In this document: positions 16,726-51,645 of the stretch, piece after piece
How the letters are laid out: every line of letters starts with the position of its first letter
Numbering within the stretch: position 1 is the first letter of the stretch
Assembly (NCBI GenBank): GCA_964016885.1
Contig: OZ024742.1
Span: forward strand, 314,092,001-314,156,000
DNA from: Eledone cirrhosa
Lineage: Eukaryota
Direction: 5' to 3'
DNA length: 64,000 bases
Notes under the pieces: generated by a model
What the model was told of the DNA's origin: nothing
Database searches by the model: none
Seen by the model: only the letters and a program-made list of their open reading frames with translations
Made by a program: the position numbers and the translations under genes

Positions 16726-17391
16726 ATATTGTTATACTTTGGGAGGGTCATGTTGCCAATAAGAAACACACACACCAGTTGCTTTCACTCCAATTTATTA
16801 TAAATTAAAAAAGTTTATAAAATCTACACACCGAAAAGACGCAATGTTTAGACAAATCACAGAGGCAATAAATACAAATGAACTCCAACCAAAATTAAAT
16901 AGAAAACATGAGTGGAATAGCAACATCACAACTTACAATTAAGGACAAAATGAAAACACACACACATAGAACAAACAACCAACCAGTAACATGAAATAAA
17001 CAAATAAATAAACAAATAAAAGCACACACAGACACCCGGATGTAACACATGCGCAAATTAAGCACACAACACACACAAAAACAAGATGGCGTAGGACAGA
17101 ACAAAGGAGAGGCACAAAACAAAGAAAAGAATCCCCAGTCACTGAAGAGGTCACAGAATGTGTGACGAAAGAACTTTGACAATATATGAACAACCGTCCG
17201 GTTGTGGAACCAACCAACCAACCGGAAATTTATAAACTTTTAAAATGTTTCAATTTAATTTATAATAAATTGGAGTGAAAGCAACTGGTGCGTGTGTTTC
17301 TTATTGGCAACATGACCCTCTCAAAGTATAACAATATCGGTTTCAACACACGTTTTCAGATAAAGAATCTTGCTAAACAAATTCAGAAATG
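16726..17391 (+). mobile_element. Family A HHR-bearing inverted-repeat retroelement (PLE-like, non-autonomous), copy 1
   Basis: Arms 16726-16809 / 17254-17337, 54-bp tail, (TA)n on both sides, HHR at 17138-17180. Confidence 0.85.
17138..17180 (+). ncRNA. Minimal type I hammerhead ribozyme
   Basis: GUCA-CUGAAGA-G GUCACA GAAUG UGUGAC-GAAAG AA CUU^UGAC. Stems I, II and III all pair. Confidence 0.85.
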
Positions 17392-18621
17392 AAATATATA
17401 TATATATATATATATATATATATATATATATATATATATATATATATATATATATATATATATATATATATAAATAAATACAATATCGGAGAAAGCTTTT
17501 TAGCGATGCTCCGCCCAAATTCCAACTCACTCAACAAACATTAGGAAATAAGTGATTATATTCCCAATTATGCGGGGTGCTAACTAAAAGTATTGCGTGG
17601 AAAATTGGCTGTATTATTTCATATGAGATATATCTAATATATCTCTTCCCAGACGGACGTCTCGTTTCATTATAGGACTCCTACAATTTGGGTGAAATTA
17701 TACCAATTTATGTAGGAGCTTGTATACCATCAATGGATATATATTCAAGTGGGCTCCTATAATTCATCAGTGGGTGCCCCAGTAATACTAATATTGATAA
17801 TCTAACCAACATCAGCTTTTAGCGATAATCACTTTCTGTTCCTGAGGTATCTGTCAGGTAGCCAGTCCAGCAGTTCTGAAAGAAGTGCTCGAACTGATTC
17901 AAAAACTGAGGAAGTAAATTACCGCCAAAAAAACAATACATGCGCATGACAATGAATTCTGAAAGGAATTCAGGCCACGTGCTAAGAACTCAATTGGAAA
18001 TTGAAAAAATATCTATGTGTGTACAACATTTGATGACACACACAGATATTTTCTCGGGCAAAATAACAGAATGAGATATAAGGAACAATCAATATTCATA
18101 TATAAAAAATAAACGAAGAAATGCTAACCTTACATCGGGAAATTTTTCGAATCTGTTGCTCCAAGAGTAAGTAAATAAATACAATATCGGAGAAAGCTTT
18201 TTAGCGATACTCCGGCCAAATTCCAACTCACTCAACAAACATTAGGAAATAAGTGATTATATTCCCAATTATGCGTTCGGGGAGCTAACTAAAAGTATTG
18301 CGTGGAAAATTGGCTGTATTATTTCAAATGAGACATATCTAATATATCTCTTCCCAGACGGACGTCTCGTTTCATTATAGGACGCCTACAATATATATAT
18401 ATATATATATATATATATATATATATATATATATATATATATATATAGATACAATATGGACTTAGGAAACACTACTCATGATTTGTTTAGATTCGAAGAA
18501 ACATTTATTGCACAATAAGATATCTAACATGTAATTTCAATGCAGTTAAGCAATGGCCTATATATATATATATATATATATATATATATGTTATTATTAT
18601 TAGTATTAGTAGTATTATTAT

Positions 18622-19027
18622 GAATTGACAGAATCGGTAGAGTGTCGGACACCATGCTTTGCGGTATTACGTTCCGCGTTTAAATCCCGTCGAGGTTAGC
18701 TTAGCCTTTCATCCTTAAAGGGTCGATAAAATAAAGTACCAGTCACGTACTGGAGTCGATTTAATCGACTTTCTCCTCTCCCACAAAATTGCTGGCCTTG
18801 TGCCTATATAAGTAACCATTATTATTAATAGCTTGATAGAGGGCGAGGGATTGGCAGTATCGGTAGGTCAAACACCATGCTTTGCAGCATAGAGTTACGC
18901 CCCTTTATGATCTGAGTTCAAATCCCACCGAGGTTAACTTTGCCTTTCATCCTTACGGGGTCGATAAAATAAAGTACCAGTAATGTACTGGGTAATTGCT
19001 GGCCTTGTGTCAAAAGTAGAAACAATT
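18622..19027 (+). mobile_element. Two tandem tRNA-derived SINEs
   Basis: Copies at ~18622-18820 and ~18848-19027 match the SINE consensus. Confidence 0.88.
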
Positions 19028-20348
19028 ATAACCCCCATTGCATTACAAGACGTTGTTTCGGAAGAGTATAGCTCTTCAAGTAATGCGCCATAACATCCAA
19101 TTGCCAGTGTTTAACCTACATATGTCTGTTTTTCAGAAAAGAATTAAGGAAACCAGCTGTGCTTCTAAGATCGCATGACTGAATTTTGAGACATTGATTT
19201 TGTAGTATTCATTGAATTTTTGTATTTGTTGATTCAATAAATGTGTAATTAAGTGTGTCTATTAAAACGTGTGTGTTTCTATTCGTCGTCTTCCTTTAAA
19301 GAGTTTAATGTTTTCCTGTAGAGGATTCAACGTCTAGCGTTTCAAAATGTTGAATGTCAGTCTTCGTTCTTAGTGAGAAGTGAACGCGTGTGTACGCTTG
19401 TATGCGTGGTTACCTTTTAGAGACATATGTATCTTTGCGTCCAGTAACACACACACACACGCGCGCGTGTGTGTGTGTTTGTGGGTATATCTGTGTGTTC
19501 TCTCAGACGTATGCAGGTATGTGCTCGAGTGTCTACGGACTCGGCTCTGTGGTGTTTCATGTATGAATTTATTAAACAAATCTTTTTTACTAATGTGTAT
19601 TTTCTCTACACAAAATCTTGTAGGGAGAATTAATAATTAGATTTACAGGAAACATAAAGAAAAAAAGTGAAAAAGAAAAAAACAAGTGGAATACACTATT
19701 TCTTTACTTCAATGTTTTCTTGAAACAATCTGATATATTGAATTATCTAACGTTGATGTATCTGGAGGTGCTTGGTAGATATTTGTAGAGTTCTCTTCTT
19801 CTTCTTCTTCTTCTTCTTCTTCTTCTTCTTCTTCTTCTTCTTTCAAACGCGTACGAATATGTCAAAAGAGAAGAAATGAAGGTGAAACGCAAATGAAATG
19901 TCCTGTTCTATTAAAATCGCATATTACCTCTGTTGAAATGTTGTTTATGATACATAAAACAGTAGCTGCGCGTGTGGGGAGTAACGAATGAATTCTGTTT
20001 GGACATTTGTTATTTTGTTTTCAAACTATATGAATTATCGAAGTGCTGGGATTTAAATGTTTAAAAATGTGAGAATTCCAAAGGCAAACGAGAGCTTTAA
20101 GAACAGCCAATCGCTATAAAATATAGATTAGAAAATTGCGTAAAAAATTCCTAGCGATCGAAAAACGTGGCCGGGGAAACTTACATAATGAATGATATGG
20201 CATATATATGTTTATTGAAAAAAATTCAGATATGTGCTCTTAAATATATAATGTAACTCATATATAAACATACAGAAAAACACACCCATGTATATATATA
20301 TATATATATATATATATATATATATATATATATATATATATATATATA

Positions 20349-20460
20349 CAACGAAGGAAGTGTGGTAAGGAACCAGATGGACCATAACGCACCAGAGTAC
20401 TCAATACTTAGGGTAGTAGAGTAGGTAATAGGAAAATGTTCAAAACCCCGACATTTTCTG
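20349..20460 (-). mobile_element. Solo 3' tail of the 47343-49551 family, inside (TA)n
   Basis: Homologous to 47343-47444 (aacgaaggaa.tgtggtaaggaaccag..accccgaca). Confidence 0.8.
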
Positions 20461-50419: not shown

Positions 50420-50640
50420 CACTGAGTTGATAATTCAACAAAGTTAATTTTACAACAGATTAGAAGCACTCCTCAGTATTTTTCTGGAGTATCATTAATA
50501 TTAAGAATATTAATAATGGAAAATATCTTTATGAAACCATATTTATTTTATTATACGTATTTCAAGGGTACTAATATATATGTACGCTTTCGTCAGATAA
50601 GATATAATATTTGGTGTTAATATCGTAACATATCTTCATG
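50420..50640 (-). mobile_element. Sibling of the 59303 family, HHR at 50548-50600
   Basis: UUAU-CUGACGA-AAG C GUAC..GUAC C CUU-GAAAUACGUAUA^AUAA. Tail homologous to 59610-59690. Confidence 0.7.
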
Positions 50641-50824
50641 TGAACTTAATGGTATAAGTCCAGTGAAGACAGTAAATTGAAAACTTCAAAACTCAAGGGA
50701 TATATGCTAATGAGGATAACTCTAAACCTGAAAAAAGCCGTTAAGTTTAGACGCTTGATACATTTTAAATCCTTATTTTAATTATATATATATATATATA
50801 TATATATATATATATATATATATA

Positions 50825-51170
50825 GTTCAAAATGACAAACAAACAAACAAACGCAGGAGTTAATGTTACATAGTGTTATTAGCTTCACGCTTGGTGAGAA
50901 TGAGGAGGGGGGACGATGACGACATTTCGAAAGAAAATTGGAGTCCGAACGGATATGGCAGAAGGTAAGGTGTGTGTGTATGCGTAGATGTAAGTGTGTG
51001 TGTGTGCTTACGTGGAGGTAAGTGTGAGAGTATAGGAAGAAGCGAGTGCATGTGAATGTGAGTTTTGAAACACCACTGTGAGTATAATCCTTGTACGGGT
51101 GTAGGTGTGTGTGTGTCGATGGAAAGGTTCGGATGGGGTTCGATGAGATCATGTCAAATCCATAGACAGT
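50825..51170 (-). mobile_element. Diverged PLE 3' end (related to 54386-54485)
   Basis: cgaaatgtcgtc..cattctcaccaagcgtgaagctaataa resembles cgaaacgtcgtt..cattctcaagagcgtgaaactaataa. Confidence 0.55.
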
Positions 51171-51188
51171 ATATATATATATATATAT

Positions 51189-51645
51189 ATATTGTTATAC
51201 TTTGGGAGGGTCATGTTGCCAATAAGAAACACATGCACCAGTTGCTTTCACTTCAATTTATTATAATAAATTTATAAATTTCTGGTTGGTTGGTTGGTTC
51301 CACAACCAGATAGTTGTTTATATATTGTCATAGTTCTTTCGTCACACACTCTGTGACCTCTTCAGTGACTGGGGAGGCACAAAAACAAAGAAAAGAATCC
51401 CAGTCACTGAAGAGGTCACAGAGTGTGTGACGAAAGAACTATGACAATATATAAACAACTATCTGGTTGTGGAACCAACCAACCAACCAGAAATTTATAA
51501 ATTTATAAATTTATTATAATAAATTGAAGTGAAAGCAACTGGTGCATGTGTTTCTTATTGGCAACATGACCCTCCCAAAGTATAACAATATCGGTTTCAA
51601 CACACGATTTCAGATAAAGAATCTTGCTAAACAAATTCAGAAACG
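51189..51645 (+). mobile_element. Family A element, copy 4 (~185-bp near-perfect arms)
   Basis: Arms 51189-51373 / 51399-51591, 54-bp tail. HHRs at 51327-51369 (-) and 51403-51445 (+), triplet CUA. Confidence 0.9.

Follow-up and report, generated by a model that had tools for sequence, protein, structure and literature searches.

Inverted, 5'-truncated copies of a Penelope-like element in TA repeats of Eledone cirrhosa and a possible origin by double priming

Identity of the element

A stretch of 64,000 nucleotides from Eledone cirrhosa (GenBank assembly GCA_964016885.1, contig OZ024742.1, positions 314,092,001 to 314,156,000 of the forward strand; hereafter the window, with coordinates counted from its first letter) holds a family of inverted repeats, Family A, which almost certainly derives from the 3' end of a Penelope-like element (PLE), copied in 5'-truncated form and joined head to head within (TA)n. 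The DNA of the window is of animal type and abounds in microsatellites, with 98 runs of at least six TA units, and the four copies of the family (A1 to A4), each flanked by (TA)n runs, lie where a preliminary description of this DNA had placed them. The order of their parts, in which the end of an open reading frame (ORF) is followed by a pseudo-long terminal repeat (pLTR) and then by the start of the ORF, is that of a PLE. The preliminary description had not recognised this identity, which makes the architecture a published one and not surprising. As an element Family A is ordinary, being a new family within an established class, found here only as truncated inverted copies, and its recognition turns an apparent miniature inverted-repeat transposable element (MITE) into a Penelope-like retroelement.

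Arm and half lengths, measured by BLAST and alignment, and the one-sided tail of 54 nt agree with those claimed before. In A1, a tailless inverted arm on the minus strand (16726-16809, 84 nt, reaching about 16822 over a 13-nt gap) carries the 3' end of the pLTR, with a terminus matching base 17337, and adjoins the longest tail-bearing half (16824-17393, 570 nt, plus strand), which comprises ORF end, pLTR and ORF start with the tail (17338-17391, 54 nt, plus strand); the unstranded (TA)n target flank lies at 16616-16725. A2 is formed by a tailless arm (31615-31874, 260 nt, minus strand, hammerhead core at 31805) and a tail-bearing half (31872-32356, 485 nt, plus strand) with the last 8 codons of the ORF, the pLTR with a mutated hammerhead core, and the tail, and the two overlap at the junction by 3 nt, GTG. 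A3 (tailless arm 32447-32710, 264 nt, minus strand, hammerhead core at 32641; tail-bearing half 32708-33192, 485 nt, plus strand) is a tandem duplicate of A2, 99.3% identical and with the same junction, the duplication taking in the TA spacer; the two are therefore a single insertion, and the independent junctions of Family A number three. A4 has a tailless arm at 51189-51375 (187 nt, minus strand, hammerhead core at 51365) and a tail-bearing half at 51374-51647 (about 275 nt, plus strand, hammerhead core at 51407), with a junction overlap of 2 nt, GA. The three independent junctions all differ, as had been proposed. In the alignment the 54-nt tail is identical in A2 and A3 and one base off in each of A1 and A4. 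The outer ends, previously called invariant, are common to all copies; they are constant only within 1-3 nt, because the terminal ATAT blends into the adjoining (TA)n and a single base is lacking from the A2 arm. Searched with up to 3 mismatches, a limit exceeded by two further arm ends (31615 and about 46990), the end motif has 10 matches in the window versus 0 in 100 shuffles. Since every copy is flanked by similar (TA)n runs, any target-site duplication would be masked.

The preliminary description overlooked a sister family whose ends are the same, with copies at 41410-41916 (S1) and 46599-47023 (S2). S1 comprises a long tailless arm (41546-41916, plus strand, hammerhead core at 41669) and a short tail-bearing arm (41410-41543, minus strand) with a 42-nt tail at 41410-41451, and S2 a long tailless arm (46599-46876, minus strand, hammerhead core at 46815) and a short tail-bearing arm (46877-47023, plus strand) with a tail at 46992-47023 that includes a 10-nt gap. 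In both, the tailless arm is the longer one and carries the hammerhead, and the tail is confined to the short arm. The tail is thus present in kind on one side, with 54 nt in Family A and 42 nt in S1, and 5' truncation with an adjoining inverted truncated copy is seen in all six copies of the two families; junction overlaps are unreadable in A1, S1 and S2.

The ORF end is best preserved in A1, where about 39 C-terminal codons of a GIY-YIG endonuclease and the stop codon occupy 16820-16942 (plus strand), the first few bases overlapping the junction. The peptide encoded by 16820-16939 matches protein P0002 (phmmer, E 5e-4, 19 of 33 residues identical) in a search among 1.84 billion proteins that gave two matches in total; P0001, the best match by E-value for this 40-residue peptide, is an unrelated repeat protein whose match is repeat-driven, and it was rejected. 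Further protein searches led from P0002 to P0003 and 28 longer proteins. Reverse transcriptase (RT) motifs and a CxnCxxC cysteine linker precede a terminal GIY-YIG domain in 9/9 long homologues inspected, and the linker-type motif (CX2-5CxxC) is present in 11/11 homologues inspected; the corresponding region is absent from the Family A copies. Pfam recognised a weak RVT_1 plus GIY-YIG in P0006, one of seven proteins scanned, and gave no name to P0002 or P0003. Against a hidden Markov model (HMM) built from 12 of the longer proteins, P0002 and P0003 excluded, the A1 peptide is the top scorer out of 2,100 window peptides (E 2e-8), aligning to positions 738-777 of the 793 in the model. The match falls at the model end and is followed by a stop and then by the pLTR, as is proper to the C-terminus of an ORF. 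The 40-residue peptide gave no match in a word-index search of proteins, relatives were not found in metagenome contigs (by protein search and DNA pattern) nor in viral contigs, and a GIY-YIG cluster that appeared in the Atlas at rank 10 was kept as no more than a lead.

The type is probably that of Neptune/Nematis, clades marked by a CX2-5CxxC linker ahead of a GIY-YIG domain with a CCHH motif; this clade assignment rests on the homologues. According to excerpts of PMC8557442, PLEs show 5' truncation, adjacent inverted truncated copies, a one-sided tail of 30-40 bp and a bias toward microsatellites, and the formation of the inverted structures is named there as an open question (for PLE context see also PMC8969392). 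With the C-terminal endonuclease-containing (EN+) PLEs Neptune and Nematis, as described in that text, Family A shares the C-terminal GIY-YIG, the pLTR hammerhead, 5' truncation, the inverted 5'-truncated copy, the one-sided tail and microsatellite targeting, and its nearest proteins carry the same CX2-5CxxC-type linker (PMC8557442); it differs in its tail of 54 nt, against 30-40 in that type, and an autonomous copy and RT are not seen in the window. Family A does not belong with Naiad, in which the endonuclease is N-terminal and a canonical hammerhead is lacking: its endonuclease sequence runs to a stop codon and then gives way to the pLTR, and a hammerhead is present.

Beyond the ORF end, A1 has a non-coding stretch of 370 nt with a putative minimal type I hammerhead at 17138-17180 (plus strand; cut predicted after 17176), formed by a stem I of 4 bp, the core CUGAAGA, an extra base, a stem II of 6 bp, GAAA and a stem III of 2 bp. 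Exact hammerhead cores number seven, all of them within Family A or sister copies, versus 0-1 in 10 Markov controls; in the tail-bearing halves of A2 and A3 the core is mutated. In an alignment of the motifs 95% of cells are paired, with at most 44% paired when the alignment is slid, and 4 of 12 pairs are changed on both sides, these compensatory changes lying in stems I and II. The motif fits the description of minimal type I hammerheads in excerpts of PMC4209133, where such motifs are reported in pLTRs, including opposite-strand pairs 100-700 bp apart, and its cleavage is a prediction. A type I hammerhead, a PLE origin and short non-coding units are also features of the non-LTR retrozymes, judging from the parts of bioRxiv 10.64898/2026.07.22.740005 cited here. 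Those are head-to-tail tandems, whereas the Family A layout is inverted and ORF remnants are kept, which places the family outside the retrozymes.

The 3' end of the pLTR appears to hold the first codons of the ORF, a suggestion drawn from coding signatures. An ATG followed by 26 codons (17312-17392, plus strand) spans the tailless end and the tail, and the frame from 17312 is open through that end and the entire tail. Between Family A and the sister family this frame shows 7 synonymous and 3 non-synonymous changes (p 0.0008); among the other frames of the region four are not significant and one antisense frame reaches p 0.045. Excerpts of PMC3846280 report first ORF codons in pLTR and tail for Pen2a of Adineta vaga, with which Family A also shares an inverted pLTR and an optional tail; the codons so placed number 12 and 22 in Pen2a versus about 9 and 27 in Family A, and Pen2a, unlike Family A, has a 31-bp tail, visible target duplications and palindromic junctions. 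In Poseidon of Anolis (PAc), as far as described in excerpts of PMC11167929, two fixed 3' endpoints likewise bound a tail in the ORF start, targets are AT-rich and the pLTR has a hammerhead. The ORF of PAc starts within the hammerhead and RT starts lie about 111-118 nt into the ORF (PMC11167929); in Family A, unlike PAc, about 130 nt separate the hammerhead from the putative ATG downstream of it, and the two ends fall at 26 and 80 nt within the ORF.

Several points weigh against this identification. No RT and no full ORF of Family A was found in the window, where truncation has left every copy starting 3' of the RT, so that RT motifs are known only from homologues reached by a two-step chain that starts from a 40-residue peptide. 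The N-terminus predicted from 17312-17392 has no match among 31 fetched proteins. For the hammerhead, Rfam gave no match on 17060-17260 and, over the whole window, solely sub-threshold hairpin matches among the best 150 of 159 rows; the motif folds no better than shuffles (z -0.1 to -1.1), and the compensatory changes mostly mark one split, that between Family A and the sister family, and so represent few events.

Inverted ends and TA flanks would also result from a MITE of DNA-transposon type that had long terminal inverted repeats, a TA target duplication and differing internal deletions, and a real mariner-like element of such a kind is present at 7537-8372. The preliminary description had rejected a cut-and-paste MITE on account of the differing junctions, and rightly so: one end bears 54 nt outside the repeat, the interior contains a GIY-YIG remnant, a hammerhead and an ORF start, all three independent junctions differ, and copy-specific subfamily variants occur jointly in both arms (9 in A4 relative to A1), which together leave this explanation very improbable.

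Endpoints in other sequence data

Four of 24 listed sequencing runs, a list that included no RNA run, were compared with 16824-17393; rows of the other runs, filed under further organism labels, do not count here as evidence on range. Contigs matching the stretch number 15,753 and 15,872 in two large sets that carry two organism labels. Each set has a loose end at 17337 that runs on into (AT)n (103 contigs in X1, 156 in X5), an independent confirmation of the inner endpoint; the outer endpoint lies at the edge of the compared stretch and is known from the four window copies. Summed contig depth, which indicates a trend only and not copy number, climbs toward the 3' end and drops past 17337 from 17,321 to 7,649 in X4 and from 1.01 to 0.71 million in X5, and from 1.67 to 1.58 million only in X1. 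All sharp begins and ends and the large loose-end piles of the restriction site-associated DNA (RAD) run X23 (16937, 17048, 17230, 17268, 17383) lie on AATT or CATG sites and were discarded, as was a tail-to-start joint from 17379 to 16937, which is at AATT sites and was taken as a library artefact.

The proposal that the tailless arm arose by internal priming at a fixed site gains support from these data, as its end recurs as a sharply defined endpoint in the other sequence sets, and from the in vitro internal RT starts reported for another PLE in excerpts of PMC11167929. The accompanying idea, that a (TA)n primer pairs with the RNA, fared worse, since the overlap is just 3-4 nt, ATAT, and the enzyme starts described in the same excerpts are non-homologous to the cut DNA.

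How the two arms may arise

On each strand of an insertion (TA)n is followed by antisense element sequence starting at a fixed point, which is the form of a target-primed first-strand cDNA. All five independent insertions (three of Family A, S1 and S2) have one tailed and one tailless arm, a pattern of exactly one tail for which the chance would be 1/32 if the sites were taken at random with equal odds. We consider it rather probable, on this sequence pattern, that two primings occur, one cDNA per target strand. The element protein would nick both target strands, and from each nicked 3' end a separate cDNA would be primed, in one case at the tail end and in the other 54 nt inside; the two primings would be coupled, either through strand displacement that lets a single RNA be copied a second time or through a dimer that holds two RNAs; both cDNAs would halt at chance points, which would leave a variable centre, and the two truncated cDNAs would be joined via overlaps of 2-3 nt. 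The same stretch being copied twice requires either strand displacement on an intact RNA or two RNAs, and PLE RTs are not known to have RNase H. Excerpts of PMC11167929 report that a PLE protein, predicted to be a dimer, cleaves and extends both strands, that two internal RT starts bound the tail, and that there is no homology between the RT starts and the cut DNA; inverted insertions are not modelled for PAc in those excerpts.

A related process is the twin priming of LINE-1, in which two cDNAs are primed by the two target strands and joined head to head by microhomology, the second site being variable and the two pieces without overlap. In Family A, by contrast, the second site does not vary and a single sequence is copied in both pieces.

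The chief alternative for the same PLE is a single priming, after which a hairpin would form by fold-back and self-priming of the cDNA or of an antisense RNA; the endonuclease would resolve it at the inner tail boundary, and later central deletions would vary the junction. For rotifer PLEs such self-priming has been proposed from palindromic junctions, and the tail has been attributed to endonuclease resolution (excerpts of PMC3846280 and PMC8557442, respectively); in the window, the tailless arm is nested in the tailed arm in all three Family A insertions, several other elements are near-perfect palindromes, and the 2-3 nt junction overlaps are compatible with deletion too. A palindrome centre is found at none of five junctions, however, with unpaired spacers of about 20-430 nt, and the tail boundaries act as RT start sites in vitro (excerpts of PMC11167929). 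About 280 nt in S1 and about 179 nt in S2 are found in the tailless arm only, each arm of both copies has sequence absent from the other, and S1, whose arms are 98.9% alike, is young; with a long tailless and a short tailed arm, neither arm is a straight copy of the other, barring later deletion. Together with the single tail in five of five insertions, these arm-specific sequences lead us to prefer two primings over fold-back, which we regard as unlikely, though far from negligible.

It is improbable that the junctions are instead inherited, whole inverted units being transcribed or duplicated and spreading as a few fixed junction types, in the manner of non-autonomous, retrozyme-like subfamilies. 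Non-autonomous PLE derivatives do exist (excerpts of bioRxiv 10.64898/2026.07.22.740005), A2 and A3 have one junction in common, and whole junctions could be examined in only 3 + 2 insertions. The shared junction belongs to a local tandem duplication that includes the TA spacer, and junctions differ in all five independent insertions. None of the 15 best-supported joints, out of 425, is an opposite-strand joint from the three contig runs, and this speaks mildly against a few amplified junctions.

That the hairpin is rebuilt at each insertion, as had been suggested, is probably correct, since the two arms are each other's nearest match in A4 (2/187 substitutions) and A1 (3/85), two of the three independent Family A insertions. 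In S1 the arms differ by 1/92. The 9 variants that both arms of A4 share relative to A1 are common subfamily variants in the contig comparison, and this, with the likeness of the arms within A4, A1 and S1, indicates that both arms came from one template lineage. A2 behaves otherwise. Its arms (31615-31874 versus 32037-32296) diverge like independent copies, and its tail has no private change; a test of two templates gave p 0.09 (Fisher) and p 0.05 for the absence of private changes over 80 nt. Judged from these differences, A2 may be a two-template insertion, or its arms may differ through age.

Double priming, too, has observations that weigh against it: only five independent whole insertions were available, the arms of A2/A3 are 8% apart (21/260) and not sisters in the tree, S1 and S2 could be explained as fold-back hairpins that later lost part of the centre, and, of the 425 joints and 1,576 loose ends in the contig comparison, the evidence draws on the 15 best-supported joints and on 24 loose ends.

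More generally, we suggest tentatively, at somewhat less than an even chance, that PLEs integrate by obligatory coupled double priming, in which one complex would act on both strands at two fixed sites and always yield a tailed and a tailless arm, an RNA stretch being copied twice or two RNAs being used, with some insertions, such as A2, being two-template chimeras. Such a scheme was not found stated for PLEs in the literature searched, a search that left most subscription papers, the PLE reviews of 2005-2006 among them, outside its scope; the supplements of PMC11167929 and PMC8557442 may hold inverted-insertion models or longer tails. What goes beyond the published PLE layout is modest: a longer tail, the pairing of a tailed with a tailless arm in 5/5 insertions, and arm-unique sequence in 2/5. 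The remaining value of the family is mechanistic and lies in its thousands of contig matches, its subfamily markers and its easily scored tail, as double priming, fold-back and two-template use would be separable by counting in a family of this kind; a high-copy family with a long tail and subfamily variants would let coupled double priming be tested from genome sequence alone. The findings also suggest the same origin for many TA-flanked palindromes in this genome.

Neighbouring elements

Eight more TA-flanked inserts combine inverted arms with an overhang of 32-107 nt on one side only (8408-8847, 28719-30251, 30270-30681, 33712-33944, 40738-41345, 47344-49548, 49581-50385 and 59303-59727); they make up 8 of 14 inverted-arm segments, out of 51 inter-TA segments, and are probably other PLE families. 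No exact hammerhead core occurs in these eight. The 80-nt overhang at 47344 is found again at 20351 with an identical boundary.

A separate, GC-rich, broken Penelope-like element with RT and GIY-YIG pieces (51660-54481) starts directly after the TA run of A4, and has relatives at 37453-38703 (minus strand) and 56301-56954; hammerhead cores of this group lie at 54366 and 56840. It was considered as a parent of Family A and rejected, having no DNA similarity to it and a different endonuclease end.

The TA run of A1 lies between the members of a 95% inverted pair (16510-16615 and 18452-18558), and A1 adjoins another insert (17473-18391) with 218-nt direct repeats; its surroundings are a nested insertion into the TA flanks of earlier elements. 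A 180-nt palindrome at 46392-46571 has its (TA)n/(CA)n run in the centre and not outside, the opposite of the Family A layout.

The mariner-like DNA transposon remnant at 7537-8372 has terminal inverted repeats of about 100 nt and a Mos1-type helix-turn-helix (PF17906). Broken reverse-transcriptase-like frames of other retroelements lie at 321-1976, 22653-23090 and 58574-59077, the first two with Pfam RVT_1. A dispersed repeat of about 185 nt, SINE-like in size, has at least 8 copies that are 79-95% alike (5001-5184, 11094-11279, 18848-19029, 21490-21670, 26066-26256, 26742-26929, 44738-44919 and 62555-62742).

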